A DNA stretch of 30,830 nt, taken from Candidatus Methylomirabilis sp. GTDB lineage: Bacteria; Methylomirabilota; Methylomirabilia; Methylomirabilales; Methylomirabilaceae. Position numbers and translations under genes: made by a program. Positions within the stretch are counted from its first letter, which is position 1; each line of letters begins with the position of its first letter. This document shows, piece by piece, positions 14,968 to 30,830 of this stretch. Location: contig JBGQJI010000012.1 in NCBI GenBank assembly GCA_041498975.1, positions 1 through 30,830 on the forward strand, given 5' to 3'. The notes under the pieces were generated by a model. The model was not told where the DNA came from, did not search any database, and saw only the letters and a program-made list of their open reading frames with translations.

Positions 14968-16383
14968 ATGACACCAAAGGATGCCATCAAGCTGGCGAAG
15001 GAGCGGGGCGCGAAGATCGTTGACCTCAGGTTCATTGACCTGCCCGGCCTGTGGCAGCATTTCTCGATACCGGTGCGGGAGTTAACGGAGGAACTATTCG
15101 CCGACGGGATTGGCTTCGACGGCTCTTCTATTCGAGGCTTTCAGCAGATCCATGAGTCGGACATGCTCCTGATCCCTGATCCGGCGAGCGCGGCCATGGA
15201 CCCGTTCCTGTCGGTGCCCACCATGGTCGTGATCTGCAACGTCATGGATCCGGTGACGCGACAACTGTACACCCGGGACCCGCGGTACATCGCGCAGAAG
15301 GCCGAGGCATACCTCAAGTCAACCGCGATTGCGGATACCTCCTATTTCGGGCCCGAGCTGGAGTTCTTTTTCTTCGACGACATCAGGTTCGACCAGAGCT
15401 ACCAGCATGGCTACTACTTCATCGACTCCGAGGCGGGGTTCTGGAACTCGGGGCGGGACGAGAAGCCGAACCTCGGCTACAAGCCCCGCTATAAGCAGGG
15501 GTACTTCCCGGTGCCCCCCATGGACAAGTTCCAGGATATCCGCTCTGAGATGGTCCTGGCGCTGGAGTCGGTGGGGGTTCCGGTGGAGGTCCACCACCAC
15601 GAAGTGGCCACGGGCGGCCAGACAGAGGTGGACATGCGGTACGGCACCCTCACCCGGATGGCCGACAGCGTCCTGTGGTACAAGTACTGCGCCAAGAACA
15701 CCGCCCGCAAGCATGGCAAGACGGCCACCTTCATGCCCAAGCCGCTCTTCCAGGACAACGGCTCCGGTATGCACGTCCACCAGAGCCTTTGGAAAGGCGG
15801 CAAGAACATCTTCTGGGAACTCGGCGGCTACGGGGATATCTCCTCTGCGGCGCTCTACTACATCGGGGGTCTGCTGAAGCATGCCCCCGCCCTGTGCGCC
15901 CTCATCGCCCCGACCACCAATTCCTATAGGCGGCTGGTTCCCGGCTACGAGGCGCCGATCAACCTAGTCTACAGCCAGCGGAACCGCTCGGCGTGCGCGA
16001 GGATTCCCGTCTATTCCAAGAGCGAAGGGGCCAAGCGGATCGAGTTCCGGACCCCCGATCCGAGCTGCAATCCCTACCTGGCGTTCAGCGCCATGCTCAT
16101 GGCGGGCCTCGACGGGATCCAGAAGAAGATCGATCCTGGCCAGCCGATCGATAAAGACCTGTACGAACTCGAGCCGGAGGAGGCGAAAGGGATCAAGCAG
16201 TTGCCGGGGAGTCTGGAAGAGGTCTTGGATGCCCTGGAGGCCGATCATCAGTTCCTGCTGAAGGGCGACGTCTTCACCCAGGATGCGATCGACACCTGGA
16301 TCGAGTACAAGCGGAAGAACGAGGTCGATCCGATCCGCCTCCGCCCCCACCCGTGGGAGTTCGCCCTCTACTTCGACATCTAA
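14968..16383 (+). CDS. glnA: Glutamine synthetase type I (GSI-beta)
   Basis: [60 protein letters not shown] and adenylylation-site DKDLYEL. RBS AAGGAGG. Confidence 0.98.
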
Positions 16384-16444: not shown

Positions 16445-16593
16445 ACCGCTGGACAATCCAAAATCGCTTGTTATCGCTTTCGGATTATGGTAAGGGTTGG
16501 GCCGATTGTGGAAGATCCATTCCGGGATTGCGACAGTAAGTTCGTGTAAAGGTTCGGGTCTTCATTTGGAAGGAGACAAAGGGGGTGTCGGTA

Positions 16594-17781
16594 ATGAGAC
16601 AAGGTCTCGGGAAACGCCGACCAGGAGTGTCGTGGCCCATCGTCTCGCTTGTCCTGTTGGTGCTTTTCGTGGTTCCGGACGCGTTTGCACAGACGATTAC
16701 GGCCGAAGGTGTGGCGGCGATCACCGGCAACGTGACGATTGCCCGCGAGAAGGCGATCGATGACGCCCTCCGTCGCGCGGTGGAGCAAGCGGTCGGAACG
16801 CTAATCTCCTCCGACACCATGACCAATAACTTCCAGGTGGTCCACGACAAGATCCTGGCCCAGACGTCCGGCTATGTGAAGAATTATCAGATCGTGAAGG
16901 AAGAGCGGGTTGGTCAGGAGTTCCGTGTCACTGTCATGGCCGAGGTTGGGCGAGAGAACCTTCAGCGGACCCTGGAAGCACTGGGACTGATCCAGGTGCT
17001 AAAGGAGAAGCCGAAGGTCATGGTCATCATCGAGGAGCAGGTGGGAGGGCTCTTCGGGACCACCGAGTGGAGAAATGTCGGTCAGGCCGAGTCCACGATC
17101 GTGGACCGGCTGATGGCCGCGGGCTTCAGCGTCGTGGATCCGGCCATGGTCCGGACCAACACATCTCGCGAGAAGGCAATCCTGCTGCTAGAGGGAGACG
17201 AGAAGGCCGCTGTCGCAGCCAGCATTCAGTACGGAGCTCAGGTGATGATCACAGGCCGGGCTTTCTCCAAGAATGCGGGTGGCAGGCTGCTTGGAACACA
17301 GATCCAGTCGATACAGGCTACCTTGCAAGCGAGGGTGTATCGAGCCGACGATGGCCGCATCATCTCGTCACGCAGCGAGCAGGCGACCAAAGCCCACATC
17401 GACGAAATGCAGGGCGGGGCCCTCGCCATTAAAGAGGCGAGCGAGAAGCTGTCTGACGCCTTGATCAAGGACATCTTGGACAGTTGGAAGAAGGAGGTCT
17501 ACGGCCGATCCCAGGAAATCACCCTCGTCATCTCCGGCCTGGTTTCCTACCAAGACTTGACGGCTGTCAAGAAGTTCCTGGAGAACGACCTGCAAGGGGT
17601 CAAGGCGGTCCACCAGCGTAACTTCACCCAGGGCACGGCAGAACTCCAGCTCGACTATGGCGGGAAGACCAGTTTTATTGCCGATGAGCTGGCGTCCAAG
17701 CGGTTCACCGGCTTTCGCCTCGAACCGATTAATGTGACCGCGAACCGGCTTGATCTCCGCGTCGTGATCCTGCGGAAGTGA
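16594..17781 (+). CDS. Exported protein with FlgT N-terminal-like domain and a CsgG/TolB-N-like middle domain
   Basis: Signal peptide ending AFA-Q. AEG.A..AREKAIDDALRRAVEQAVG..I.S.T...N......I...TSGYV..Y.I..E....F.V.V.AEV is the FlgT_N pattern, followed by KPKVMVIIEE..GF.VVD..GAQVMITG. Confidence 0.78.
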   Translation: MRQGLGKRRPGVSWPIVSLVLLVLFVVPDAFAQTITAEGVAAITGNVTIAREKAIDDALRRAVEQAVGTLISSDTMTNNFQVVHDKILAQTSGYVKNYQIVKEERVGQEFRVTVMAEVGRENLQRTLEALGLIQVLKEKPKVMVIIEEQVGGLFGTTEWRNVGQAESTIVDRLMAAGFSVVDPAMVRTNTSREKAILLLEGDEKAAVAASIQYGAQVMITGRAFSKNAGGRLLGTQIQSIQATLQARVYRADDGRIISSRSEQATKAHIDEMQGGALAIKEASEKLSDALIKDILDSWKKEVYGRSQEITLVISGLVSYQDLTAVKKFLENDLQGVKAVHQRNFTQGTAELQLDYGGKTSFIADELASKRFTGFRLEPINVTANRLDLRVVILRK

Positions 17782-17833
17782 ATCGGGCTTCGTATAGGTC
17801 GGTCACTCGCCGATGGGTAAGGGGTGATCAGTG

Positions 17834-18331
17834 ATGAGAGCTCAGATCCGAACGGGTATTATGATGTGTCTCGTCGCAGTAGCACTCCTCTTGGCATATT
17901 CGAGTGAGGATGCGGCATCGGCCACTCTCGACCAGCATGCCTCGGAATCTGAGGCCGCCTATGATCAGGAATCTTCGCAAGGACGCCCGGTGAATTGGGG
18001 GGCGGTCTGGGGAGCGGTGCGGGAGTTTGAGGCACAGACCTACGCGCGCGTTCGTCCCCGGCAGTTCTCGATCGAGATCGCGATGCCTCAACCCTGGCAC
18101 TACATGCAGAGCGCTCCGGTGTTTGCGGCGAACCCGCCCAGCTCTATGACGCCAGGCTACGACGGTTATTCTTACGGCCCCATTTATCCCTATGCTCCTC
18201 CGTACGCCGGCTGGTGGGGTCTATCGCCCTGGCTTCACAGGTGGAGCACGATCTCTTTCAGCCAACACCACCGGCACCACGTAGGAGGGCATGGAGGGCA
18301 TCATGGGGCCAGAGGCCACCACCATCGCTAG
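17834..18331 (+). CDS. Small exported protein with Tyr/Pro-rich segment and His/Gly-rich C-terminus
   Basis: Hydrophobic N-terminal signal; YGPIYPYAPPYAGWWG; C-terminus HHRHHVGGHGGHHGARGHHHR. Confidence 0.65.
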   Translation: MRAQIRTGIMMCLVAVALLLAYSSEDAASATLDQHASESEAAYDQESSQGRPVNWGAVWGAVREFEAQTYARVRPRQFSIEIAMPQPWHYMQSAPVFAANPPSSMTPGYDGYSYGPIYPYAPPYAGWWGLSPWLHRWSTISFSQHHRHHVGGHGGHHGARGHHHR

Positions 18332-18484
18332 TTAGCATCCAATGATCGCTCTGGCCCGTCTCCTGACGGTGGGTGTCTGGCCTCTTCCGGATCTGGTGTT
18401 TCGAGGACTGCGGGGGTGAGGAAGGAATCGGTTGGAAAAGCAAGGCTGACCACCAGGGGAGACGACGCTTGCGGGAGGTTTGTC

Positions 18485-21400
18485 ATGAAGCGCATTTGTA
18501 GGTTGCTTGCTGTTTGGTCCGTGCTCGCGGTGATAGGCAGCTTCCCTGTCCTGCCTTCGCTTGCCAAGGAGCCAGAGTCTCTGAAGGACGATATTCAAGA
18601 TGTCCTCAGGGACATCGCTGAGTTCGCTAATCGAAATGGGGGCAGTATTGTTCCAGATTCAGCACTGGAGTTGGGGATCTCCCGCCTGGAGCATGATCTG
18701 CCCTTTATGGATCGTCTGCTGGCGGCGCTGCCGTGCGGCAAAAAAGCGCCGGACGTCCTCGACGTGAAAGCCGCCCTCGACGCTGTCCGTCGCTTGATCC
18801 CGACAGTGCCGTCCCAGCCCACGGAAAAGAACATAGACGATCTCAAGAAACGCATCGAGTTCCTTGACAAAGTGCATATCACAACGGTTAACCTCATCAA
18901 GTTGAAGGTCATCAGCGGTATGACCACGGCACTCATAGCCGCGGTCCCAGCCTCAGGTAAACCGGGTGCCTCAGGGGTCGACTTCGGCAATGTCCTCGAC
19001 CAGGGCCTGAGCCACATGGGGGTCAATCCCGCGGACACCGGTACGGTGAAGAAATTTCCGGGCCTGCCCCAGTATCGACAGTATCTATATGGTGAAAACA
19101 AGGATGAGTTTCAAAGGTTTGCTCAGCAAAAGGTCGATGAGGGGCTGCGGAAGTATCAGGGTCCCCCCGGGGGGGGACCACGGTTCACCGAGTACGACGT
19201 GTACCTGTGGGCGAACGAATTCACTCGCACCAAGAGCGCGGCGGATAAGAAGGCTGCCGAGCAACAGCTTGAGCAAAAGAAAAAGGAACTGACTGTACTC
19301 CTGCCAAAGAGCCAGGAAGCGGAGAAAAGGAAAAGGTACTTCGAGGGTCTGGTGGCTCGCTTGGAAGCGGCATGGAACGCGTCACTATGGGTGAAGGACA
19401 AGACTCAGTTCGAGAAGCCCGGGGCCGTCATCACCGTTTCGGTTGTCGATGCCGCCTCCGGGAGCCCGATCGGGGACGCGAAAGTTGGTCTCACCCCGCC
19501 CTCGGGAACGATGAGCGCGTCGATGAGCTCGACGAAGTACGTCGGCGTGGATCAGCGAGCGTATAGTATCGTGGCGGAGCACCGAGATTACAACAGCAGT
19601 AGCGCCTCAGTGACGGTGACGGACTGCAAGGATCACCCGGTGGTTGTCCGGCTCGTCCCGCTCCCGAAGCCACCCGCTGTAGCGACTCTCCACGTTTCGG
19701 TCATGGATGAAGCCACTAGGAAAGCGGTGCCTAACCCGAGAGTCGATCTCACCCCGGCCGCCGGCTGGAAAACCTTCCTGCGGGACCCGGACCGAATGGT
19801 GTTCGAGAAGCTGCCGCCGGACTCCTATAGCGTCACGGCCGAGGCCGAAGGCTACACCAGCGGCAGCGACCGGGTGACAGTGATTGAGCAAAAGGATTAC
19901 TCGGTGGTGATTTGGCTGAAGAAGAAAGAGGAGGACACGGGGCCTGTGCCGCACCTCACGGCACGGCTGGACTGTGGCGGCCTCCTAGAAGTGGTGCCTG
20001 GCCAAGGCAGCAAGGCCTGTACGGTAATTGTGGAAGGGTGGCGCAGCAACACCGTTGATCCGGTGGAGGTGGTGCTCTTCCCGAACCCTCCCCCTGGAGG
20101 CATCGTGATGTCTGGCAACACCTCGGTGGACCCGGGCAATATGTACACCGCTGGTGTCTCGGACAAACGGGACGAATACCCAATCAGTGAGTACTTCCGG
20201 GCCGACGACAGTGCACCGCCAGGAACCACGCCATTCCAGATCGTCGTCCGCCAGCGCGGCGCCGGCAGCGTCACGCTTCCGCTCTCGGTCATCGTGCTCC
20301 CTAAGAAGGGTGGGCCCGTCGGGCCTGCACCGGGTTCGCCGTCGTCGCCGCCCATATCCAGCACCACCGGCGGGCAACTGAGCGCGCGCCTGGACTGTGG
20401 CGGTATCCTACAACTGGTGCCGGGCCAAGTCAGCAAGAGCTGCGGTGTGGTCCTCCAGGGGTGGCGTAGCAACACAGCCGACCGCGTCGAGGTGGAGGTA
20501 GTCTATCCGCGGCTGAGCAGCGGGATTGAGGTGTTCCCCGGAACCACTTCCCAGGACCCGGGCAATATGTACACTGCGGGCGTATCGGATCACCAAGGCG
20601 AATACATCTTCTCCGAGGGGTTCTCCGCCAGCGACAGCGCCCTCCCTGGGACCACACCGGTGCGGGTCGTCGTTCGCCAGCGCGGCGCCGGCGAGCTCAC
20701 CCTCAGCCTGAACGTGACGGTCCTCGCCAAGGGCACGCCCGATATTCTCGGGATTGGCACGCCCCCTCCCGTCCAAGCCGGAACCGGGGGCAATATCTGC
20801 GTCTGGCGGTACAAGCTCATCGGCGATCCATACCCGGACTGCTGGCATTTCGTGGCCTCCACCTGCGAGAACAGACGGTATGCGAATAAGCCGGACTACC
20901 CGCTGGCAGGCTCGAACATGAACTGGGGGGACGCCGACCGGCTGATCGGGGAGCAGAGCCGCTACTTCAGCGACGCGTGTCGAGGAATCGCCCCCGGCCC
21001 GTCGCAGGCGGCAGCGCCCCCGCCGGCGACCGTGGCCGCCGGCAGCGGAGGGGAGTACTGCGTCTGGCGCTATAAACTCTTCGGCGATCCCCCGGCCTGT
21101 TTCCACTTCGCGGCCGCGGCGTGCGATACGCCCCGGTACACCAATCCCCGGGGTGGCTACGAGTTGGTCGGCTCTGGCATGAAGCGGTCGGAGGCCGACG
21201 CGCGGATTCAGGAGCTCAGTCGCTACTTCGACGACGCCTACGCGTGTCGCGCAGCCGCCGCTACACCTTCCACGAAACCGGCCACGCCTCCACCGTCCAC
21301 CCCTTCGGACTCTAGTGATTCCACCCCGCCGACCCCCCCCATCGGCCCTACGGAGCCTTCCGAACCCCTCCCTCCCACAGGCCCCGCCCAACCTACCCGC

Positions 21401-22441
21401 TACCTGTCTGCCTTTCAGGTGGCATGCCGCCCCACGACGATAGTGGCCAAGGAACAGTCGGCGACCTGCCAAGCGTCGGGGGTGTACTCGGACAAGCCGG
21501 ACCAGGCTGTGAACCTGACGGCCCCGCCCACGACCTGGGAAAACGGTCCTACATTCAGCTCCGATGTGGACGGTGAGTACACGGTCACGGCCTCCCTCGA
21601 GGGGTTGAGCGGATCGGCGACGGTGAGGGTGAAGAAGAAAGCGGACATCGCCGGCGCCACTAAAGAGGCGGGGAAGGTCCAAGCGCAGGATCCGGGGGGT
21701 AAGGCGCCCCCCACGCAACCAGACACGCCCGGTCAGACACAGGGGGGCTATGCGGAGCCACCGCCCGGCTCGACCCCAGGCGGGGGTCAAGGTGGCACTC
21801 CAGGCGCGCCGGGACTACCGCTGCCTCCGGGATTGCAGCCCGGAGTCGTCGTCGGAGGTCTGGTCAGCCCACCCGGGTTGGGGCCGTTGGGGGGGCCGCT
21901 GCCTGGAGGGCCTCCGGTGGGCGGAGGGGGTGGCCCGTATGGACCGTCCACCGGAGGTGGATCACCAGGGTCAAAGCCAGCGAAGACCGCCGGGGGGGCG
22001 CCTCCGAGGACGCCGCCGGTGAAGACCCCGCCCACCACGCTGCCGCCGGTCACGCCGCCCGGGCCCCCTCCGCCGCCCCCGACCCCTGGGTCAGGCGCGC
22101 AGGGTATTGACTTGTCAGGCACGTGGCAGGCAACCTACAACGCAGACTTTTTAGGCAATTTAAGGTTTACTATGACCCTCCGCCGCGTCGCTGCCGGTAA
22201 GTGGGAAGGTCCATTGGACTACGATGTTGTTGACTGTCCTGAGATGAGCTTCAAGACCCAGGCAACGCTTCAGGCTACGGGCGTCGGAAAAGTACATCTG
22301 ACATATAACAGTCCAGCAAAAGACTGTCCAAGATATGTTGGGAAGATAGTGGCAGGGGCTCAGCAGGCAGATGGGACGTACACCAACTCCCAAATTACCT
22401 TCGGGGCTTCTCCCAACACTGTGACGTACACGAGAAAGTAG
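18485..22441 (+). CDS. Large exported modular protein: helical N-domain, 2 carboxypeptidase-regulatory-like domains, 2 long Cys/Ig-like repeats, 2 short Cys-rich repeats, Ig-like domain, Pro/Gly linker, C-terminal beta domain
   Basis: RBS GGGAGG; signal MKRICRLLAVWSVLAVIGSFPVLPSLA; two V.V.D..SG.PI..A.V.L..Y.V.A.A.GY units; internal repeats visible at protein and DNA level. Confidence 0.85.
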   Translation: MKRICRLLAVWSVLAVIGSFPVLPSLAKEPESLKDDIQDVLRDIAEFANRNGGSIVPDSALELGISRLEHDLPFMDRLLAALPCGKKAPDVLDVKAALDAVRRLIPTVPSQPTEKNIDDLKKRIEFLDKVHITTVNLIKLKVISGMTTALIAAVPASGKPGASGVDFGNVLDQGLSHMGVNPADTGTVKKFPGLPQYRQYLYGENKDEFQRFAQQKVDEGLRKYQGPPGGGPRFTEYDVYLWANEFTRTKSAADKKAAEQQLEQKKKELTVLLPKSQEAEKRKRYFEGLVARLEAAWNASLWVKDKTQFEKPGAVITVSVVDAASGSPIGDAKVGLTPPSGTMSASMSSTKYVGVDQRAYSIVAEHRDYNSSSASVTVTDCKDHPVVVRLVPLPKPPAVATLHVSVMDEATRKAVPNPRVDLTPAAGWKTFLRDPDRMVFEKLPPDSYSVTAEAEGYTSGSDRVTVIEQKDYSVVIWLKKKEEDTGPVPHLTARLDCGGLLEVVPGQGSKACTVIVEGWRSNTVDPVEVVLFPNPPPGGIVMSGNTSVDPGNMYTAGVSDKRDEYPISEYFRADDSAPPGTTPFQIVVRQRGAGSVTLPLSVIVLPKKGGPVGPAPGSPSSPPISSTTGGQLSARLDCGGILQLVPGQVSKSCGVVLQGWRSNTADRVEVEVVYPRLSSGIEVFPGTTSQDPGNMYTAGVSDHQGEYIFSEGFSASDSALPGTTPVRVVVRQRGAGELTLSLNVTVLAKGTPDILGIGTPPPVQAGTGGNICVWRYKLIGDPYPDCWHFVASTCENRRYANKPDYPLAGSNMNWGDADRLIGEQSRYFSDACRGIAPGPSQAAAPPPATVAAGSGGEYCVWRYKLFGDPPACFHFAAAACDTPRYTNPRGGYELVGSGMKRSEADARIQELSRYFDDAYACRAAAATPSTKPATPPPSTPSDSSDSTPPTPPIGPTEPSEPLPPTGPAQPTRYLSAFQVACRPTTIVAKEQSATCQASGVYSDKPDQAVNLTAPPTTWENGPTFSSDVDGEYTVTASLEGLSGSATVRVKKKADIAGATKEAGKVQAQDPGGKAPPTQPDTPGQTQGGYAEPPPGSTPGGGQGGTPGAPGLPLPPGLQPGVVVGGLVSPPGLGPLGGPLPGGPPVGGGGGPYGPSTGGGSPGSKPAKTAGGAPPRTPPVKTPPTTLPPVTPPGPPPPPPTPGSGAQGIDLSGTWQATYNADFLGNLRFTMTLRRVAAGKWEGPLDYDVVDCPEMSFKTQATLQATGVGKVHLTYNSPAKDCPRYVGKIVAGAQQADGTYTNSQITFGASPNTVTYTRK
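19955..20731 (+). repeat. Intragenic tandem repeat A (two units of ~117 aa)
   Basis: Units 19955-20305 and 20378-20731 share LxARLDCGG..VPGQ.SK.C.V...GWRSNT.D.VEV..DPGNMYTAGVSD..SE.F.A.DSA.PGTTP..VVRQRGAG..TL.L.V.VL.K. Confidence 0.9.
20786..21247 (+). repeat. Intragenic tandem repeat B (two Cys-rich units of ~65 aa)
   Basis: Units ~20786-20980 and ~21047-21247 share GG..CVWRYKL.GDP..C.HF.A..C...RY.N....Y.L.GS.M....AD..I.E.SRYF.DA. Confidence 0.9.
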
Positions 22442-22524: not shown

Positions 22525-25500
22525 ATGCCTATGATTGCTAGACGGCTGACTGCGCTGATCGTTCTCGTGGCATTCGTCCTTGAGCCGTTCATGGGTCTCA
22601 TCGGCCGTGAACTGGCGGAGGCCGATTCCCGGGGGCGAGCCTCCCGTGTCGCGGCGTTCGATAACGCGCTGGCCTTGCACTTCGGTCGGGGCACGTCCTC
22701 CGATAGGCTTTTCGTCCACCATCCCGGCGACCCGGTCAACCTCCGCACGGGAAATCTCACGCTTCCCGGGATTGACCTGTCTGTCCCCTCTCGAGGCCCG
22801 TCGCTGGAGGTTACGCGGAATTACAACAGTCGGTCGTCTGCGGCCGGTCTCTTCGGACTGAAGTGGCAGTCCAACCTGGAGATGCGGGCGCTCCGCCTTG
22901 CGGGAAGGATTGCCATCGTGGAGCCCGATGGCGCCCTGATCGAGTTCAGGCCGGACGGCAACACCCCGGGCGCTGCGACCGGCGGATCGCGGTACAGAGC
23001 CACCGTGCGCGGCCCGGAGCAGGCGGAGGAGAGGCCGGACGGGTCACTCCTGAGGCAGACGGCCGCCGGGACTCGGGAGCTGTTCGATCGACAGGGCCGG
23101 CTGGGACGGATCGAGGACCGAAACGGCAATGCCCTCCGCTTGGAGTACCAGGGCGACAAGCTCATGAGAGTCACGAGCGATTCAGGGCGGGGGCTGACCT
23201 TTATGTATGGCGGTCCCGGCGGCCGATTCGTCGTGATGGTGAAGGACCCGGCCGGAGGGATCATTCGCTACCAGTACGACACGCGAGGCCGCCTGATCAG
23301 CGTCATCGACCAGGCCGGGCGCGAGGGACGCTACGAGTACGATGGCCGCGATCGGCTGGTCGGGCTGATCTACACCGACGGCGCGGAGACGCGGATGACC
23401 TACGAGGGCGATACCGGCGCGGTCCTGGCGCAGCAGGGACCTGGCCCTGGGACGACGACCTACCGATACGAGTGGGAGCCGGGCGGCGTGCTGTCTCGTC
23501 GGACGATGGTCACCGACGTTGCGGGCCGTCGGACCGTCTACGAATACGCTCAAGGCGGACGGGAGTTGGCCGTCACTGAGCCTTCCGGCCGTCGGACGGC
23601 CGTGCTCTACGATCCAGACTTCCACCAACCGCTAAGCGTGAGCGGGCCGAAGGGGATCCTCGCCTCCTATCAATACGATAGTTCGGGACGCCTCTTGAGT
23701 GAGACGAGCGCGCTGCGGCGGACGACCCGTTACCGCCACGACCCGGTCTCCGGCCGGCTGCTCGAGGTCATCGACGGGGCAGGCCACCGTGCCCGCTTCG
23801 AGTACGATGCCAGAGGGAACCGGCTGGCGGCGGTTCGAGGGGACGGGGCGGCGACGCGCGGCGTGTACGATGCGCGCGGCCAGATCGTCGAGCGGATCGA
23901 TCCAACCGGCGCCCGGACACGGTTTGGCTATGACCAGGCGGGAAACCTGATCGAGCAGGCGGACGCCGCCGGGCAGAAGACGCGATACGAGTACGACGTT
24001 CTCGGCCGGCAGGTCAGACGAATCGGGGCCAGTGCGGCGGAGACTCGTTGGGCCTACAACGGGGTCGGAGACCTGATCAAGAAGGTGGACGCCGAGGGGC
24101 GAGAGACGGTCTACCAGTATGACCCGATGCGCCGGTTGAGTGCGGTGACCGACTCGGCCGGCCGCGTCACCCGGTACGAGTATGATATCGGCGGCCAGCT
24201 CGTCGCCGTCGTCGATCCGGCGGGTGGGAGGACGGTCCGAAGCTACACGCCGGATGGGCTCCTGCGGGAGATCACAGACGCGAGCGGGGTCGTCCTCCGG
24301 TACGAGTATGATCCGCTTGGTCGGAGAGTCGCCCGGATCGACGGCCTGGGCCACCGCTCGCGGTACGAGTACGACGCCGAGGGCCGCCTCGCCACCTTGC
24401 GGGACCCGACTGGAAACGAGCTTCGACGTGCCTACGACGCTGGCGGGCGGCCAACGGTCCTGGCGAACCAGTCGGGCCGGACTACTCTGACGTATGATCC
24501 CGCCGGCCGCGTCGAGGCGTTGACCGAGCCCGACGGGAGGACCTGGCGGTACCGGTTCGGCCCGGTGGGGAAGGTCACGGAGGTGATCGATCCGGCCGGC
24601 GGCAAGGCCGCGTATCGGTACGATGCAGCGGGACGGCTCCTTGAGCAACTCGATCCGGCCGGCCTGAGCGTCCGCTACCTCAGAGACCAGCTCGGCCGAG
24701 TGGCTGCCGTCGAAGACCCGCTTGGGCCAGTGATGCGTCTCGCTTACGACGACTGCGGCAACGCAGTCTCCAAACTCTCACCCTCTGGAAAGGGGGTCAG
24801 ATATGGATACGACCGCCTTGGGCGCGTTGTTAGTATCAGCTATCCCGACGGCAGCGAGCGACGATTTCAATATGACCGGGCCGGAAATGCCGTGGCTGCA
24901 AGGCAAGGCGAGGAAGCAATCCAGTACAGGTACGACGCCTTGAACCGCCTGGTTAGTGTACAGTACCCTCGCTTGAACAAGACGATCCGCTACGCCTATG
25001 ACGCCGCCGGGCGCCGGACGGAAATGGTGGACACCGCCGGAGGCGTGACTCGGTACCGTTACGACGCGGCCGGCCGCCTCGCAGAGCTGACACCGCCGGA
25101 TGGCGCCATTCTACGTTTTGCCTATGACCCTGCCGGGCGCATGACGGAGGTTCGCTACCCCAACGGGGTGACGGGCAGGATCTCCTACGAGCTAAATGGC
25201 CGTGCGAAGGGTGTAGGGTATGAGCGGGCCGGACAACCGATCGCAGGACGTAGCTACCAGTATGATCCCTCAGGTCGCCCCGCGTCTGCGACCGCCCATG
25301 ACGGCTCGATGGAGCGGTACGGCTATGATGGGCTTTCACGGCTTACGACGGTAACGGGCGCCAAAGGGGATCGGGTTGAGTATGCGTACCTCCCTGACGG
25401 CAGCCGGGCTCGGACGTCCTCAGGTTCGTCCTCGGTCAGTTACAGCTACGACCCGGCGGGTCGCCTCGTCGCCGCTGGAGGCGTGACGTTCAGGCATGAC

Positions 25501-27453
25501 GCTGACGGGAACCTCATCGAGCGGAAGGGGCCTGAAGGCGTGACTGGGTATGAGTATGACGCCGACCGCCGATTGGTCAAGGTAAGCACGCCGAATGGTC
25601 AGACGATCGCCTACGGCTACGATCCGGATGGGCAGCGGTTGTGGCGGAGCGATATGGCAGGGACCGCCTACTTCCTCCATGACGGTCTCAACCTCGTCGC
25701 CGAGTTGGACGACAAGTTCTCGGTGAAGGCCCTGTACCTTCACGGCGAGGGGCTGGACGCTCCCCTCGTCATGATGCGGGCAGGGAAGAGTTATTACTAC
25801 CATCCGGACCGATTGGGCAACATCCTTGCGCTGACCGATGATCGTGGGCAAGTCGTGGCCTCGTACACATATGACCCCTTCGGCTCTCCCCAGTCCCTCC
25901 AGGCAACTGTGCCGAATCCATTCCTCTTTACGGCCCGGGAATACGATTCGGCCACCCGCCTCTATCACTTCCGTGCCCGCGAGTACGACCCAGCGTTAGG
26001 CCGATTTCTCACGAAAGATCCGTTGCCGGGCAATCTCCTTGATCCTCGTACGCTCCAGCCGTACGTGTACGTGTCCAACAATCCCTTGTCCCTTACTGAC
26101 CCGCTTGGGTTAGTCGGGTTTAGTGATCCTCCGAGTATTCCGGGTCTCCCCTCGTCAGGTTATCTCCAACCAAGCGACATCGCTAAAATCACAGACCCCG
26201 GTATGCGCGTCAACGTGCTCCAGCAGATCAATCAGGTGGCCACTCAGTACCCAGGACGGTACAGCGTCGGCATCACTCCGGGTAATCCCGGAACGCTGAC
26301 GGTGTGGCCGAATAATGGACCGCCGCAGACCATCTATCCGGAGCCACTCGGGGTGCCTGGCGGCATGGCAAATATAGCCATCCCTGAAGGACCCGTCGAA
26401 ATCGTGCCTGCGCCTAAGCCACCAGGAGGCATGACATTACCTGTCACGCCTGAGCCTGTTGCGCCCGTTACACCTGCGGAACCTGTCGTGCTCGAACCGG
26501 TTGCTCCGGGGGGCGCTGCCGGTGGGGCAGGGGAGGGTGCGGGCATTTCCGTGGGCGGGGCGCTGGGCGTGGTGGCGTTCGGGGTTGCGGTGATTGCAAG
26601 CGCCGTCCATATCGCCACGGCGGACGATAAAACAGGGGCGACCATACAGGAAACTGGTGGCTGGGTCGGCGCGATATATGGGGCCGGAGTTGGGGCATTT
26701 CTCTCTCCGGTTCTCGGTCCGCTTGGCCCGATCGGTGGCGGACTCATCGGCGGATTCATCGGGAGCGTAGTCGCTGGCTGCCTCTACGGCCCCTGTCCGC
26801 CGCCGGGCCCGTCGCCTTACCTCCCACCGGTGGAGCCGCCGCCATCGAGCCCGACCGGGAGTGTGCCCGCGTCCGGCACAAGCGACGGAAACCCCGTGCT
26901 CACCCCTCTACCTGACCCCGGCACGCCATCGGTGACCGTGGCGCCCTTTCCGCCGGTACACCCACCAAAACTTCCATCGGGGGAATCTGGACCGCCCCCC
27001 GACCTTGTCTCCCCGCCCTCCACTGAGCCCGAGCCTGGGAGCATGGGCACCGGGGCAGTCCCCAACATCAAGGGCGCAACAGAAGCAGCGGGCGAGTCCC
27101 AGCAAACGGCTCCCTGGGGGGCGTCACAGCAGCCCGCCACTCAATCGACGCAATCCGGGCCGCAGGGGCCGGGTTACGGAGCGCCGGAGCCGCCACCGGC
27201 CTCCCCGCCGCAGGGCAGCGCGGGCACGGCACCGGCTTATCCTGGGTCCCCGGGGTATCCGCCGTCGCCGGGCACCGGGTTCACGCCCCCTGGCTATAGT
27301 CTGCCACCGATGGATGATCCCGGGGAATCGCTTGGTTCTGGTGGAAGTGGCTCGAGGGGAGGGCGCGGACATCCCCCGAGGGGCGGTGGAAGGAAGGACC
27401 CAAAGCCGGGGACACCTGTGACGCCTCCCTGCAACCCTTGCGGAGGAGCGTGA
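22525..27453 (+). CDS. Sec-signal Rhs/YD-repeat protein (DUF6531 + YD repeats + Rhs-associated core + 446-aa C-terminal extension)
   Basis: Signal-like N-terminus ending AEA; DUF6531 pattern GDPVNLRTGN..DL..LEVTRNYNS..FG..W; many YD.xGRL repeats; core YYHPDRLG, YDPFG, REYD..TRLYHFRAREYDP.LGRFLTKDP and NNPLSLTDPLGL (DPLGL at 26098-26112). Confidence 0.93.
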   Translation: MPMIARRLTALIVLVAFVLEPFMGLIGRELAEADSRGRASRVAAFDNALALHFGRGTSSDRLFVHHPGDPVNLRTGNLTLPGIDLSVPSRGPSLEVTRNYNSRSSAAGLFGLKWQSNLEMRALRLAGRIAIVEPDGALIEFRPDGNTPGAATGGSRYRATVRGPEQAEERPDGSLLRQTAAGTRELFDRQGRLGRIEDRNGNALRLEYQGDKLMRVTSDSGRGLTFMYGGPGGRFVVMVKDPAGGIIRYQYDTRGRLISVIDQAGREGRYEYDGRDRLVGLIYTDGAETRMTYEGDTGAVLAQQGPGPGTTTYRYEWEPGGVLSRRTMVTDVAGRRTVYEYAQGGRELAVTEPSGRRTAVLYDPDFHQPLSVSGPKGILASYQYDSSGRLLSETSALRRTTRYRHDPVSGRLLEVIDGAGHRARFEYDARGNRLAAVRGDGAATRGVYDARGQIVERIDPTGARTRFGYDQAGNLIEQADAAGQKTRYEYDVLGRQVRRIGASAAETRWAYNGVGDLIKKVDAEGRETVYQYDPMRRLSAVTDSAGRVTRYEYDIGGQLVAVVDPAGGRTVRSYTPDGLLREITDASGVVLRYEYDPLGRRVARIDGLGHRSRYEYDAEGRLATLRDPTGNELRRAYDAGGRPTVLANQSGRTTLTYDPAGRVEALTEPDGRTWRYRFGPVGKVTEVIDPAGGKAAYRYDAAGRLLEQLDPAGLSVRYLRDQLGRVAAVEDPLGPVMRLAYDDCGNAVSKLSPSGKGVRYGYDRLGRVVSISYPDGSERRFQYDRAGNAVAARQGEEAIQYRYDALNRLVSVQYPRLNKTIRYAYDAAGRRTEMVDTAGGVTRYRYDAAGRLAELTPPDGAILRFAYDPAGRMTEVRYPNGVTGRISYELNGRAKGVGYERAGQPIAGRSYQYDPSGRPASATAHDGSMERYGYDGLSRLTTVTGAKGDRVEYAYLPDGSRARTSSGSSSVSYSYDPAGRLVAAGGVTFRHDADGNLIERKGPEGVTGYEYDADRRLVKVSTPNGQTIAYGYDPDGQRLWRSDMAGTAYFLHDGLNLVAELDDKFSVKALYLHGEGLDAPLVMMRAGKSYYYHPDRLGNILALTDDRGQVVASYTYDPFGSPQSLQATVPNPFLFTAREYDSATRLYHFRAREYDPALGRFLTKDPLPGNLLDPRTLQPYVYVSNNPLSLTDPLGLVGFSDPPSIPGLPSSGYLQPSDIAKITDPGMRVNVLQQINQVATQYPGRYSVGITPGNPGTLTVWPNNGPPQTIYPEPLGVPGGMANIAIPEGPVEIVPAPKPPGGMTLPVTPEPVAPVTPAEPVVLEPVAPGGAAGGAGEGAGISVGGALGVVAFGVAVIASAVHIATADDKTGATIQETGGWVGAIYGAGVGAFLSPVLGPLGPIGGGLIGGFIGSVVAGCLYGPCPPPGPSPYLPPVEPPPSSPTGSVPASGTSDGNPVLTPLPDPGTPSVTVAPFPPVHPPKLPSGESGPPPDLVSPPSTEPEPGSMGTGAVPNIKGATEAAGESQQTAPWGASQQPATQSTQSGPQGPGYGAPEPPPASPPQGSAGTAPAYPGSPGYPPSPGTGFTPPGYSLPPMDDPGESLGSGGSGSRGGRGHPPRGGGRKDPKPGTPVTPPCNPCGGA

Positions 27454-27626
27454 ACCCCCGGGAATTGTTGAGCGCCGGGCTGGCGCTCGAGGGGGAATGA
27501 GATCGATTCCATTGGATTGCCATTGCGACTTGCAATTCAAGCGGACATTCTGAGCAGCATCGCGGCCGGATCGGTCTGAGGTTCAATTTCTGAGAGAGCA
27601 CACACCAACTTGAGGAGATGAAAGGT

Positions 27627-28562
27627 ATGGAGATCCGCCACTGTAGGATTGGGTTGATTGTCACCTTGGGGGTCGCCGTTGTCGTTGGCTCGCCGTTCAG
27701 TCCGAAGAGTGTCTACGCGCAGGGGAAGGTCCGGATCGCGGTGACGGCATTCGAGAACAAGGCGAAGAGTCCCTACCTCGATCCCAGTTGGAAGATCGGC
27801 GAGGGGCTTGCCGAGATCCTCACCACCGAGCTGGCCAAGACCGGCCAGTTTATCGTTGTCGAGCGGCAGGCGCTTGGCGACATCGTGAAAGAGCAAGAGC
27901 TGGGACAGACCGGCCTGGTTCGCGGTGAGACAGCGGCCAGGACCGGGGAGATCATGGGGGCGCAGATCGTGGTGCGCGGCGCGATCACAGAGTTCGAGGA
28001 GCGGGCGAGTGGAGGCGGCGCCGGGCTCCAGGTACGAGGGTTCCAAGGTGGTGGCGGGGTCAGCAACGCCCACGTTGCGCTCGACATTCGCCTGATCGAC
28101 ACGTCAAGCGGACAGGTGATCGCCTCGCACCGTGCGGCAAAGTCGGTCCCGTCCGGCGGCGGGAAGCTCGATGCCAGGATCGGAACCGTCCAATTCGGGG
28201 GCGAGGCCTTCTTCCAGACGCCATTCGGTCAAGCGACGCGGGCAGCGATGGACGATGCCCTTCAGTTCATCATGGCGACCGCCTTCAAAGCTGTGGTTCC
28301 GTCTTTCTCCATCGTCAAGGTGGAGGGGGGGACGGCCTACATCAATGCGGGCACGAATTCGAATGTCAGGGTCGGCGACGTGTTCATGGTGTACACGAGG
28401 GGAGAAGAGCTGATAGATCCGGATACCGGCCTGAAACTGGGCAGCGACGAGAGGATGATCGGGTCGATCCAGATCACCTCGGTGCAGGAGAAATTTTCGA
28501 TCGGGACGATCAGGGGTAGTACGGGCGCCATGAAGCGAGGCGATCTGGTCAAGGTGCGATGA
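27627..28562 (+). CDS. CsgG/HfaB-family protein with FlgT-C-like domain (non-lipidated signal)
   Basis: RIAVTAFENK, LAEILTTELAKTGQFIVVERQAL..IVKEQEL, GAQ..VRGAITEFE and VALDIRLID..SG.VI. C-terminal YINAG....V.VGD.F.VY..GEELIDPDTG..LG. Signal ends VYA-Q. Alternative start 27618. Confidence 0.85.
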   Translation: MEIRHCRIGLIVTLGVAVVVGSPFSPKSVYAQGKVRIAVTAFENKAKSPYLDPSWKIGEGLAEILTTELAKTGQFIVVERQALGDIVKEQELGQTGLVRGETAARTGEIMGAQIVVRGAITEFEERASGGGAGLQVRGFQGGGGVSNAHVALDIRLIDTSSGQVIASHRAAKSVPSGGGKLDARIGTVQFGGEAFFQTPFGQATRAAMDDALQFIMATAFKAVVPSFSIVKVEGGTAYINAGTNSNVRVGDVFMVYTRGEELIDPDTGLKLGSDERMIGSIQITSVQEKFSIGTIRGSTGAMKRGDLVKVR

Positions 28563-28655
28563 AGGCGCGCTCAGCAGACGCCCATGTGGCGGGAAACTGT
28601 ATGGCTTAGCCCCAGAACAGAGATAGGAATCGTCATTGCTTCGAAAGTCCCCGGG

Positions 28656-28830
28656 TGTCATTGCGAGGGAGCGGAGCGACCGAAGCAATCTGACCCGAAG
28701 GGTCATTCCGAGCAACGCGAGGAATCTCACCGGGATTGCTTCGCTGCGCCTCGCAACGACACTGCGTGTCGGATTGCCGCGCACCCTTCGACTCGGCTCA
28801 GGACAGGCCCTTTGAGTGCTCGCAATGACA
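28656..28830. repeat. Composite/nested REP-like palindromic element
   Basis: Perfect terminal inverted repeat TGTCATTGCGAG...CTCGCAATGACA. Internal GAAGCAATC/GATTGCTTCG arms, plus embedded GTCATTCCGAG..GCGAGGAATCT and CCCTTCGAC..GCTCAGG half-elements. Confidence 0.85.
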
Positions 28831-28985
28831 GATATTTCAGGCCGTTGGTAAGTCTATCTCTGTTCTTGCGATTATGAAATGTCTTGACTTTTGGCACCGG
28901 AAGCGATAACTGAATCACCGGATTACTAATCGGCGTCGTCGTGGATGGGTAGAATGTGCTTGCCGCATACGGGAGGTCATTCGGG

Positions 28986-29987
28986 ATGAACCGCGCTCTT
29001 CTCCCCCTCGCCCTGAGGAAGTTCGTGTTCGCGGCGGTTGGCAGTGCCGCCCTGCTCATCGCCGGGTGTGCAGCCGTACCGCCTCCTGGTGGGCCCGGGC
29101 AGGAGGCTGCGGCCCTCCAGGCTGCTCAGCTCACCTATCCCCCTTACGATGGGCTCAAGAAACGGTTGGCTGTCATCCGGTTTGAGAACAAAGTCAAGAC
29201 TGCGCTTCCCGATCCCAGTTGGAAAATCGGAGAGGGGCTGACGGAAATGATCACGAGCGAGCTGTTCAAGACCGGCCGCTTTATCATGGTGGAGCGCGCA
29301 GCCCTTGCCGACATCGTGAAGGAGCAGGAGTTGGGACAGACCGGCCTCATCCAGAAGGAGACTGCAGCCAAGGTCGGGGAGTTGCTAGGGGCTCAACTTC
29401 TCATCACTGGAGCCGTGACGGAATTCGAGGCTCAGGCTCGGGGAGGCGGAGGGGCGGTGGGGTTCCGCGGAATCGGCGTCAACCTGCGCACACAGAGCGC
29501 GCACGTTGCGGTCGATGTTCGCCTGGTCGATGCCTCAACTGCCCAGATTCTGACCTCGATGAATGCGGAGGCATCAGCGTCGTATACGGGGCTGGGCTTT
29601 ACGGCCAAAATAAAGGGTGTGGATTTTGGCTCTGAAGGGTTTCAGAATACCCCGTTGGGTCAGGCGACCCGCGAGGCGATCTACAAGGCCGTCACGCAGA
29701 TTATCAAAGAGATGGAGAGGTTCCCGTGGACCGGCCGGGTGATCCAGGTCAAGGAGGGGGACATCTATGTGAACGCGGGAGTCAATGTCAACCTGAAACC
29801 CGGTGTGAAGCTCGCCGCGTACGTCAAAGGAGAGGATCTGTTCGATCCCGGCACGGGGCTGAATCTCGGGAGCAGGGACACCCTCGTTGGCACCGTCACC
29901 GTGAGAGATGTACAGGAGAAGTTCAGCATCGGCACATTCGCTGGGAATGGAGCCCTGAAGCGAGGCGACCTCTTGAAGTTCCAGTGA
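28986..29987 (+). CDS. CsgG/HfaB-family lipoprotein with FlgT-C-like domain
   Basis: RBS GGGAGG; lipobox LIAG-C; YDGLKKRLAVIRFENK, KTGRFIMVERAAL..IVKEQEL and GAVTEFE. Close paralog of 27627-28562. Confidence 0.88.
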   Translation: MNRALLPLALRKFVFAAVGSAALLIAGCAAVPPPGGPGQEAAALQAAQLTYPPYDGLKKRLAVIRFENKVKTALPDPSWKIGEGLTEMITSELFKTGRFIMVERAALADIVKEQELGQTGLIQKETAAKVGELLGAQLLITGAVTEFEAQARGGGGAVGFRGIGVNLRTQSAHVAVDVRLVDASTAQILTSMNAEASASYTGLGFTAKIKGVDFGSEGFQNTPLGQATREAIYKAVTQIIKEMERFPWTGRVIQVKEGDIYVNAGVNVNLKPGVKLAAYVKGEDLFDPGTGLNLGSRDTLVGTVTVRDVQEKFSIGTFAGNGALKRGDLLKFQ

Positions 29988-30056
29988 AACAGCCCTCACC
30001 GAAGCCTCTCCCCAGTGGGGAAAGGGTACGAAACGTTTGGAGAAGGAGGTGATGTC

Positions 30057-30251
30057 GTGAAACGATGGGCCAAGCTGTTTTCCCTGTTGCTGCTGACGGT
30101 CATCGGACTTGGCGCATGCTATTATTATGTCCCGCCTCCACCTCCACCGGCGCCACCACCTCCGCCAGCGGCCTATACGCCGCCTCCACAGGGGCCGTCC
30201 CCGCCCCACCCGTATGTCGGCCCCACAGACCCGCAGAGGGGATCTCGGTGA
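30057..30251 (+). CDS. Small polyproline lipoprotein 1 (64 aa)
   Basis: RBS AAGGAGGT, GTG start; MKRWAKLFSLLLLTVIGLGA-CYYYVPPPPPPAPPPPPAAYTPPPQGP... Confidence 0.8.
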   Translation: MKRWAKLFSLLLLTVIGLGACYYYVPPPPPPAPPPPPAAYTPPPQGPSPPHPYVGPTDPQRGSR

Positions 30252-30297
30252 ACCCCGCCGATTCACGACCAGGTCTGGATGAGAAAGGAGGTCATCG

Positions 30298-30450
30298 GTG
30301 CTTCGACGACCAAGCATACTGCTGCTGCTTATCGGGGTAGGGCTCCTGGCGGGGTGCTATGTGTACCAGATGCCGCCGCCCCCTCCGCCCCCGCCACCAC
30401 CAGCCTATGCTCCTCCACCCCCGCCACCTCCCGTGCTGGTTCCTCGGTAG
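30298..30450 (+). CDS. Small polyproline lipoprotein 2 (50 aa; not in the ORF track)
   Basis: RBS AAGGAGGT, GTG start; MLRRPSILLLLIGVGLLAG-CYVYQMPPPPPPPPPPAYAPPPPPPPVLVPR*; perfect lipobox LAGC. Confidence 0.8.
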   Translation: MLRRPSILLLLIGVGLLAGCYVYQMPPPPPPPPPPAYAPPPPPPPVLVPR

Positions 30451-30478
30451 GGCCACGGAGAAAGGAGGATATGGTGTC

Positions 30479-30830
30479 ATGCGTCGAGATCCAGAGAGGC
30501 TAGTCATCAACGATTGTGTCCGGCAGAGTAAAGCTGCCGTGCTTCTGCTTTCAGCGAGTTCATTGGCCCTCGCGCTGACCGCCCTGGCCGGCTGCACCGT
30601 CTACGACTACGGTCCCGGCCGGCCCCCGGTGGTGGTCCCCGGCGTCCTCGTGCCGCCGCCCCCGCCCCAGCCGGCCTACGCGCCCCCCCCGCCACCCCCA
30701 GCCCCGATCGTCCGGCAGGACGTGACGCTGCGAGCCAAGGGGGCCGGGGCGCCCCCGACGAAGGCCGCGAACGCCGCCCAGGCCCGCCTCATGTCGGAGC
30801 GGGCAGCCAAGGTGGACGGGTACCGCAACC
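30479..30830 (+). CDS. LPP20/FlgP-like lipoprotein with Pro-rich N-terminus (truncated by window end; not in the ORF track)
   Basis: RBS AAGGAGG; lipobox LAG-C; CTVYDYGPG..PPPPPQPAYAPPPPPP, then LRAKGAGAPP..AQARLMSERAAKVDGYRN, the LPP20/FlgP pattern A.G.G....QA.LMA.RAA..D.YR.L. Frame is open to the end. Confidence 0.78.
   Translation, partial: MRRDPERLVINDCVRQSKAAVLLLSASSLALALTALAGCTVYDYGPGRPPVVVPGVLVPPPPPQPAYAPPPPPPAPIVRQDVTLRAKGAGAPPTKAANAAQARLMSERAAKVDGYRN

Follow-up and report, generated by a model that had tools for sequence, protein, structure and literature searches.

What role in the cell envelope could be played by three successive genes for very small, polyproline-rich lipoproteins? 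The question is raised by the end of a 30,830-nucleotide stretch of DNA from Candidatus Methylomirabilis sp. (GenBank JBGQJI010000012.1); this window is the entire contig C12 of the assembly GCA_041498975.1, here called G000 (2.68 Mb, 85% complete). The genes, designated LP1, LP2, and LP3, are three co-oriented open reading frames (ORFs) in the last 800 bases of the window, and they are genuine lipoprotein genes under purifying selection. We give about an even chance to the explanation that their products are outer-membrane-type lipoproteins acting as tethers or adaptors of a non-flagellar, FlgP/FlgT-like envelope scaffold, for which docking through a C-terminal tail with a Val-Gly-Pro (VGP) core is proposed.

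Structure of the three lipoprotein genes

The coordinates of the genes are listed in Table 1. As the original prediction had read from the letters, all three successive genes combine an AAGGAGG ribosome-binding site (RBS), a lipobox, and an aromatic stretch at the start of the mature protein, and a common AY(T/A)PPP motif interrupts their polyproline. Mature LP1 has 44 residues; it is Pro rich, begins with CYYYV, and ends in PHPYVGPTDPQRGSR. Mature LP2 has exactly the 31 residues and the Pro runs of 10 and 7 that had been counted (CYVYQM, 10 Pro, AYA, 7 Pro, VLVPR), and it lacks the VGP motif. Mature LP3 starts with CTVYDY, followed by a Pro-rich stretch with AYAPPPPPP and then AQARLMSERAAKVDGYRN; this tether of about 40 residues (CTVYDYGPGRPP followed by polyproline) leads into the start of a predicted FlgP/LPP20 (SHS2-like) domain. 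Immediately before the Cys, the signal peptides read MKRWAKLFSLLLLTVIGLGA in LP1, LLLLIGVGLLAG at the end of that of LP2, and LALALTALAG at the end of that of LP3, and each has a positive n-region, a hydrophobic core, and a lipobox of the form [LVI][ASTVIG][GAS]C. Proline codons are as varied as had been claimed, with all four in use both in LP1 (CCG 8, CCA 6, CCT 4, CCC 2) and in LP2 (CCA 6, CCG 5, CCC 4, CCT 4).

The genes are closely spaced, with gaps of 69 nucleotides (nt) between the upstream gene and LP1, 46 nt between LP1 and LP2, and 28 nt between LP2 and LP3; a weak scan found no promoter-like or plus-strand terminator-like site between the upstream gene and LP3. When the assembly (2.68 Mb) was scanned for ORFs that combine a lipobox, five or more Pro in a row, and a Pro-rich mature start, four ORFs were returned, namely LP1, LP2, LP3, and one unrelated 174-residue protein.

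LP1 and LP2 are conserved under purifying selection

Among 28 related loci scanned from public contigs, 12 have the long-signal-peptide form of LP3 together with upstream sequence. LP1 and LP2 are each present in 12/12 of these loci, all intact, with lengths of 63 to 65 and 49 to 50 residues, respectively (11 of the LP1 copies were found by script and the twelfth, in L116 with the lipobox RGAC, by reading). The order CsgG-like gene, LP1, LP2, LP3 is likewise kept in all 12 Methylomirabilis-type loci, which bears out the expectation that the small ORFs would be conserved near csgG-like genes in relatives. Variable sites at the first, second, and third codon positions number 15, 14, and 50 in LP1 (12 sequences) and 16, 7, and 36 in LP2 (13 sequences), and the pooled ratio of nonsynonymous to synonymous change (pN/pS) is 0.14 for LP1 and 0.21 for LP2, at a synonymous divergence (dS) between the window and its relatives of 0.6 to 1.1. 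Thus, the Pro runs were retained through near-saturating silent change.

These values bear on the rival explanation that LP1 and LP2 are functionless, as decaying duplicates of the LP3 5′ end or as chance ORFs in GC-rich DNA. The C terminus of LP2 (PPPPVLVPR-stop) does resemble the end of the LP3 tether (PPPPAPIVRQ), LP1 and LP2 are rarely reported by gene callers, and two long antisense ORFs (29574 to 30317 and 30292 to 30597) overlap them. However, pN/pS is 0.14 to 0.21 at dS values that reach about 1, no copy is disrupted in any of the 12 loci, and the family to which LP1 belongs is conserved across phyla (see below); the antisense ORFs are not the selected frame, because the third-position variation falls on their first codon position. 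We regard a functionless origin as extremely unlikely.

The genes had been described as partly invisible to ORF calling, and LP1 and LP2 are indeed nearly absent from databases of called proteins. Nine exact look-ups (LP1 from two starts, LP2, the orthologues from genome G009, a fused form, and three antisense ORFs) were absent from the protein collection. A word-indexed search of 5.8 billion protein clusters returned one LP1 relative, the fused form P0001, and a database search of the same kind returned no protein sharing words with LP2; low-complexity words may weaken such searches for both. Yet LP1 and LP2 are both encoded on at least 12 public contigs. Neither protein matches a Pfam family at E ≤ 0.1, CsgF included; the micro-lipoproteins gave chance-level matches to Pfam, NCBIfam, and PHROGs (for example, a BimA Pro run at E = 0.014 and a Zot-like match at E = 0.018), and the best scores of LP1 in the ESM Atlas (0.77 to 0.78) are under the useful level. 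A search of the open literature, with subscription journals outside its coverage, yielded no description of such micro-lipoproteins.

Full-length LP3 carries a FlgP-like domain

LP3 is cut by the end of the contig, and the window copy alone has no Pfam match. A full-length LP3 orthologue matches PF02169 (LPP20) with 28.6 bits against a cut-off of 25.9, and the precomputed PF02169 annotation is found on nearly all of the LP3 homologues listed. The AlphaFold model of the orthologue, built with 44 homologues, runs from a strand and a helix through a short hairpin to two further strands and a helix at the C terminus; the hairpin (strands 133 to 137 and 140 to 144) is located between the helix and the next strand, with a predicted local distance difference test score (pLDDT) below 50 at residues 143 to 150. 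The sole significant PDB match of the model is Campylobacter jejuni FlgP (9hmf_A; E = 1.4e-7, TM score of 0.70 on the target, 31% identity). As modeled, LP3 is a FlgP/LPP20-fold lipoprotein on a polyproline tether of about 40 residues, and the claim that the small-protein module is fused in LP3 to an LPP20/FlgP-like domain holds for the full-length orthologue both by PF02169 and by fold.

C-terminal ends of LP3 copies are found on two other contigs of the assembly. The last 44 residues of LP3 open contig C105 (positions 1 to 132), followed by a trypsin-like protease gene, and an identical 43-residue tail opens contig C192 (positions 1 to 129), followed by glnE. In the congener G009, a single contig (locus L020) carries an RHS gene, two CsgG-like genes, LP1, LP2, LP3 (189 residues), the protease gene, an extracytoplasmic function (ECF) sigma/anti-sigma pair, and an S41 peptidase gene, and continues with a Tyr/Pro-rich small protein, the LPP20-like protein LPP20b, a fused lipoprotein of the LP1/LP2 type (84 residues), a second LP3 (170 residues), and glnE. 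The order C12, C105, C192 follows from synteny with this locus, and we infer that the assembly broke inside the repeated LP3 copies. At its other end, C105 carries another LPP20b gene, a paralogue of LP1 (MMQKL...CYYVV...PHPYVGPTDPQRGSR), and the first part of a paralogue of LP2. The whole module spans about 30 kb, between glnA (14968 to 16383) and glnE on C192.

LP1 belongs to a micro-lipoprotein family with an xVGPxR tail

Loci of other phyla (Nitrospirota, Thermodesulfovibrionia, and a Syntrophaceae bin) were found via the LP3 domain. The order of their genes is conserved, running from a small lipoprotein through LPP20b, a double-LPP20 protein, and an LP3-type lipoprotein to a FlgT_N-like protein, after which a further LPP20 gene and either a CsgG-like or an RHS gene often come. 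In 18/61 of these loci, many of which are too short for the region, a lipoprotein of 55 to 88 residues (at most 106 from the first in-frame start) heads the LPP20 cluster. The filter behind this count used only the lipobox and proline content, with no reference to VGP; all 18 proteins nevertheless carry VGP, either as ...GC-Y-[IV]-Y-T-x-E-PPP...V-I-I-I...PPPPPPP...G-[AE]-V-G-P-A-R or as two to three copies of PPP[ST]GAVGPA.

On the basis of sequence, LP1 is a member of this unannotated family of micro-lipoproteins, which we define by a precursor of at most 110 residues with a lipobox, a C-Y-x-Y start, a Pro-rich spacer, and xVGPxR near the C terminus, and by a gene located within an LPP20 cluster. 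LP1 shows every one of these features, its PYVGPTDPQRGSR being the local form of the xVGPxR tail, and it matches the family profile at E = 1e-16; LP2 has all of them except VGP and ends in PPPPVL[VI]PR. In an alignment that joined the family to LP1, to the LP1 paralogues, and to the fused forms, no variation was seen at the putative lipid-bearing Cys, one Pro, and V-G-P, and Tyr stood at +2 in at least 90% of the sequences; part of the aligned sequences, although not the 18, had been picked with a VGP-aware filter. The lipobox Cys is invariant in 30/30 family members. A profile search of 1.84 billion representatives returned 31 proteins at E ≤ 1e-3 (12 of them at E ≤ 1e-10), the majority being proteins of the same type with 51 to 114 residues. 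In L124 (about 1300 to 1560), an intact mature part (ACYIYTKEPP...GAVGPAPRY) is accompanied by stops in the signal-peptide region, and this member may be a pseudogene or reflect a sequencing error.

The genes had been described as a family of polyproline micro-lipoproteins. In the wider family, polyproline is absent from the members in L051 and G326, which keep two SGAVGPAR motifs; VGP, and not polyproline, is thus the conserved element. Strong full-length matches occur in 4 of the 251 Methylomirabilota genomes sampled, all within the genus of the window (4/20), and the module is therefore accessory.

The same data bear on the explanation that the products are free-standing envelope struts, abundant lipid-anchored rods of polyproline II (PPII) helix that would, with no specific partner, set or fill the space beneath the outer membrane, comparable to Braun's lipoprotein or OprI. 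Such a role would suit LP2, which is almost pure polyproline with no recognizable docking motif, as well as the persistence of the Pro runs at nearly saturated synonymous sites. It is an unlikely role, however, for genes that are always inside LPP20 clusters, and the patchy distribution, with no strong match elsewhere among the 251 genomes of the phylum and with few in an even sample of 151 genomes from one class, misfits a general strut; in addition, there are family members with no polyproline, the C-terminal residue is Arg and not the Lys of covalent wall linkage, and no coiled-coil pattern is seen.

Micro-lipoproteins accompany LPP20b

The usual neighbor of the micro-lipoproteins is LPP20b. 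Of the 31 loci in which 450 nt or more precede the LPP20b gene, 20 have a micro-lipoprotein gene adjoining it by script and 4 more by eye (L049, L051, L053, and L092); in L124 it is interrupted by stops, and none was seen 5′ of LPP20b in L046 (masked bases), L052, and four distant loci, in which LPP20b is only about 30% identical. The stop of the micro-lipoprotein gene overlaps the LPP20b start in L042, L045, and G326, which points to translational coupling. In the 151-genome class sample, full-length LPP20b occurs in five genomes and adjoins a micro-lipoprotein in 5/5 (four by profile and one by reading), and the other profile matches are three weak ones (E = 4e-6 to 4e-5) in genomes that have no LPP20b. 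A signal peptide is present in LPP20b, and no lipobox-like string was seen in 16 of the 19 sequences. A third LPP20-domain paralogue of G000 (C13, 19152 to 20237, plus strand) is an N-terminal fusion with a FecR-like part; it lies beside a CHASE2 adenylate/guanylate cyclase-type gene and has no adjoining micro-lipoprotein.

Fused and unfused forms of the same parts are found. In P0060, an LP1-like region (…NAYVGPSDPLR…) is joined directly to an LPP20 domain, and the LP3-type lipoproteins of L042 and L045 carry GEVGPAY inside their own tethers. The tether has about 15 residues in the LP3 orthologues of other phyla (about 140 residues in total), compared with 45 to 50 Pro-rich residues in the Methylomirabilis type, where its start, C-T-V-Y-D-Y-G-P-G-R-PP-V-V-V-P, resembles the C-Y-I-Y...P-V-I-I-I of the free micro-lipoproteins. 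A common origin of the Pro-rich parts of the LP3 tether and the micro-lipoproteins is likely.

Genes upstream of LP1 and the non-flagellar setting

Two genes upstream of LP1 had been taken as csgG-like. Their placement in the CsgG superfamily stands by Pfam (Table 1), whereas the fold modeled for the second of them is closer to FlgT than to CsgG: in the monomer model (m7e0de58a3484; pLDDT 69.7, with a Gly-rich loop of low confidence at residues 164 to 176), the best matches are the FlgT structures 8z5n and 3w1e (E of about 1e-17 over 292 to 293 columns), and CsgG chains (4uv2) come second (E of about 1e-10 over some 226 columns). The first of the two genes has an orthologue in L037 with 80% identity.

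Table 1. Features of the window discussed in the text, with the lipoprotein genes first
Feature	Position	Strand	Evidence
RBS of LP1, AAGGAGG	30043..30049	+	Sequence; 7 nt 5′ of GTG start
LP1, 64-aa micro-lipoprotein precursor	30057..30251	+	GTG start, lipobox LGAC
RBS of LP2, AAGGAGG	30285..30291	+	Sequence; 6 nt 5′ of GTG start
LP2, 50-aa micro-lipoprotein precursor	30298..30450	+	GTG start, lipobox LAGC
RBS of LP3, AAGGAGG	30462..30468	+	Sequence; 10 nt 5′ of ATG start
LP3 5′ part, 117 of about 186 aa	30479..30830	+	ATG start, lipobox LAGC, open at contig end
CsgG-superfamily/FlgT(M+C)-like lipoprotein 2, 343 aa, lipobox IAGC	28956..29987	+	Pfam CsgG (PF03783) 4.6e-42; directly upstream of LP1
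CsgG-superfamily/FlgT-like protein 1, 314 aa, signal peptide with no lipobox	27618..28562	+	Pfam CsgG 3.8e-39, FlgT_C 9.8e-6, FlgT_M 1.5e-4
FlgT_N/DUF2066/LipL46-like exported protein	16585..17781	+	Pfam FlgT_N 1.4e-11; NCBIfam LipL46 5e-24, under its cut-off

These results weigh on the proposal that the small proteins are CsgF-like accessory peptides or plugs, whose Cys-aromatic N termini would insert into rings of the two upstream CsgG-family proteins. The arrangement in the window is suggestive, with LP1 only 69 nt 3′ of a gene that has a strong Pfam CsgG match and with no promoter-like or terminator-like site found between them on the plus strand; the CsgG-like/LP1 order is kept in 12/12 Methylomirabilis-type loci, and a CsgG-like gene also directly precedes the micro-lipoprotein gene in L054 and L105. 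However, the second copy of the module (LPP20b, micro-lipoprotein, and a second LP3) has no adjoining CsgG-like gene, most loci of other phyla have the CsgG-like gene 2 to 5 kb away and LPP20b adjoining, the modeled neighbor is nearer to FlgT, and no Pfam family matches LP1 or LP2, both of which have a lipobox. CsgF, for its part, is a non-lipidated protein with a separate Pfam family; what the two cases share is a short peptide region that is proposed to associate with a ring of a CsgG-family protein from an adjoining gene. The association of the micro-lipoproteins thus tracks LPP20-domain genes and not CsgG-like genes, and we consider a CsgF-like role, which the original prediction had put forward, quite improbable.

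The preferred scaffold reading draws on the wider setting. Homologues of the FlgT_N-like protein, about 60% identical, lie within the LPP20 clusters of other phyla by tblastn synteny. The locus follows glnA, holds RHS, protease, and ECF sigma genes, and is free of flagellar genes. Neither G000 nor G009 (85% and 94% complete, respectively) yielded FlgI or FliP, FliP is present in the cluster-bearing G016, and both are present in the cluster-less G008; in these four incomplete assemblies, the cluster shows no correlation with flagellar genes. From the sequences and models, we read the locus as a non-flagellar module of H-ring-type and basal-disk-type proteins (LP3, the products of 27618 to 29987, and that of 16585 to 17781).

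Several other genes and elements of the module were also observed. A 1,341-residue protein with a CarboxypepD_reg domain (18416 to 22441) and a 1,642-residue RHS/YD-repeat protein with a long Pro/Gly/Ser-rich C-terminal tail (22525 to 27453) are encoded on the plus strand inside it, and RHS genes also lie 3′ of the FlgT_N-like gene in the other-phyla loci L043, L049, L051, and L053. Two small exported proteins on the plus strand with Tyr/Pro/Trp/His-rich low-complexity tails have no Pfam match: one of 166 residues (17831 to 18331) ending in a His/Gly-rich run, for which an LPP20-like identity was rejected (hhalign probability of 0.6%), and one of about 100 residues on C105 (7484 to 7786) with YYYPPSYYPY and PVYQ repeats. 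The interval between the two CsgG/FlgT-like genes (28570 to 28950) consists of dispersed repeat units with 62 matches in the 2.68-Mb assembly, many of them 85 to 100% identical over 40 to 130 bases, and like elements occur 5′ of small genes on C105. The trypsin-like serine protease gene on C105 (603 to 2264; homologue at 8733 to 10439 of L020) is followed by the ECF sigma/anti-sigma pair and the S41 peptidase gene. Arg is the C-terminal residue of LP1, LP2, and the fused forms, and the last residues of the LP3 tether are IVR, with Gln next; processing of the tails by this protease is conceivable.

Lipidation and translation of polyproline

A gene for lgt is present in G000, and lspA is present in 3/3 congeners searched. 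Processing by Lgt and LspA would yield N-terminally acylated LP1, LP2, and LP3 peptides. In Escherichia coli, the residue at +2 governs sorting of lipoproteins to the outer membrane; by this rule, the Tyr or Thr at +2 would route the peptides there. Polyproline stalls ribosomes, and elongation factor P (EF-P) relieves the stalling, so that translation of the runs of 10 and 7 Pro would need EF-P. The efp gene is present in the genome, which makes EF-P dependence of LP1 and LP2 translation a reasonable inference.

Stalling could also be the purpose of these ORFs, if they were regulatory leaders that tie the expression of LP3 to the activity of EF-P or to the supply of proline and whose peptides are unimportant. 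Runs of 6 to 10 Pro lie directly 5′ of LP3 in such an arrangement, separated by the 46- and 28-nt gaps, and both the presence of efp and the established relief of stalling by EF-P agree with it. However, the signal peptide, lipobox, C-Y-x-Y start, and C-terminal motif are conserved under purifying selection, each ORF has its own strong RBS, relatives with no polyproline keep both position and motif, and fused forms exist, which leaves a purely regulatory function very unlikely.

Comparison with known systems

LP3 resembles FlgP of the Campylobacter basal disk and the Vibrio H-ring, as well as Helicobacter pylori Lpp20, in its lipobox, its N-terminal tether, the PF02169 match of its orthologue, and a domain whose model best matches C. 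jejuni FlgP and includes a hairpin. It differs from FlgP in its non-flagellar cluster and its polyproline tether of about 40 residues, and tether-only paralogues such as LP1 and LP2 are not described in the FlgP papers cited here. According to one report, FlgP forms concentric rings via its hairpin insert, a longer N-terminal linker shifts the disk axially, and tether length determines how far the disk lies from the membrane (PMC12222027). In a study of the Vibrio H-ring, lipidated N-terminal loops anchor FlgP, FlgO, and FlgH, and short loops at the termini reach into adjacent ring subunits and glue FlgP, FlgO, and FlgT together (bioRxiv 10.64898/2025.12.02.691832). The module likewise combines a FlgT(M+C)-like fold, a FlgT_N-like protein, and FlgP-like lipoproteins; unlike the H-ring, it has no flagellar neighbors, places FlgT_N and FlgT(M+C) on separate genes, and has multiple LPP20 paralogues, and its micro-lipoproteins have no counterpart in that description of the H-ring.

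Other small envelope proteins offer partial parallels. Lipid-anchored Lpp and the Pro-rich rods of TonB and TolA act as periplasmic rulers. LP1 and LP2 differ from Braun's Lpp in having neither coiled-coil heptads nor a C-terminal Lys and in their patchy accessory distribution, and from TonB in having no TonB C-terminal domain. Differences from CsgF are the lipobox and the lack of a Pfam match in LP1 and LP2, the FlgT-like neighbor, and the association that follows LPP20 genes. The PXPV-repeat lipoproteins (PF12778) are likewise small and rich in Pro, Val, and Tyr, and one Atlas cluster at 0.77 provides a lead only; PF12778 itself gave no match to LP1 or LP2 at E ≤ 0.1 or to five relatives at E ≤ 1. 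Rz1 of phage lambda is described as a very small Pro-rich outer-membrane lipoprotein that acts via partner binding (PMC5295617), whereas the micro-lipoproteins begin with C-Y-x-Y and carry VGP in the tail, with no lysis cassette or i-spanin nearby. An Rz1-type o-spanin was rejected as a candidate, with PHROGs spanin models reaching E values of only 0.16 to 0.99 and with envelope, RHS, and protease genes as neighbors.

A proposed lipid-anchored tether of a FlgP/FlgT-like scaffold

In the scaffold explanation, the tether of LP3 would hang a FlgP-like, probably ring- or lattice-forming domain from the membrane, and its length should determine how far the lattice lies from the membrane. LP1 and LP2 would be tether-only paralogues of the N-terminal module of LP3. 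The xVGPxR tail of LP1 would dock a partner in the module, most likely LPP20b, which would thereby gain a lipid anchor in trans; for LP2, a role as a spacer with no motif or as a competitor may apply. Pro runs favor a stiff PPII helix with about 3.1 Å per residue, and the upper-bound PPII spans would be about 10 nm for LP2 and 12 to 14 nm for LP1 and the LP3 tether.

Several points weigh against this explanation. The LP3 model is of modest confidence (pLDDT 67.9), with part of the hairpin region below 50. Three of the 19 LPP20b proteins have an ambiguous lipobox-like string, and in the cluster of the window itself no LPP20b adjoins LP1 to LP3, the nearest being about 8 kb downstream on C105. 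The alignment of the LP3 N terminus with the family by hhalign covers 16 columns, in the lipobox and C-x-x-Y region only; for the Pro-rich parts, homology is therefore argued from their composition and order and from synteny. VGP is lacking in LP2 and in the LP3 tether, so that docking cannot explain LP2. Finally, lspA was not found in G000, an assembly that is 85% complete.

A more specific and tentative version, which we think possible although doubtful, takes the xVGPxR micro-lipoproteins as detachable lipid anchors, each a lipidated short linear motif on a polyproline ruler. They would staple a FlgP-like lattice that is itself mostly non-lipidated (LPP20b and paralogues) to the outer membrane at a fixed distance, and in Methylomirabilis, multiplication and fusion of the anchor would have given rise to LP1, LP2, and the tether of LP3. 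In a bolder variant, the invariant Tyr-x-Tyr next to the lipid and the VYA/AYA breaks in the Pro runs would form Tyr cross-links between rods, as in extensins.

In GC-rich genomes, genes of about 50 codons that are real and under selection can thus go unnoticed beneath longer antisense ORFs. LP2, whose mature protein of 31 residues contains 10 Pro in a row, is an extreme case of natural polyproline translation and would be a useful test substrate for EF-P. On the scaffold explanation, a conserved partner of 30 to 60 residues, mostly missed by gene callers, would be a missing part of a FlgP/FlgT/CsgG-like system whose non-flagellar gene clusters recur in many phyla, and the micro-lipoprotein, with its lipid anchor, its spacer resembling a ruler, and its short motif for docking, may serve as a handle for the study of such clusters.

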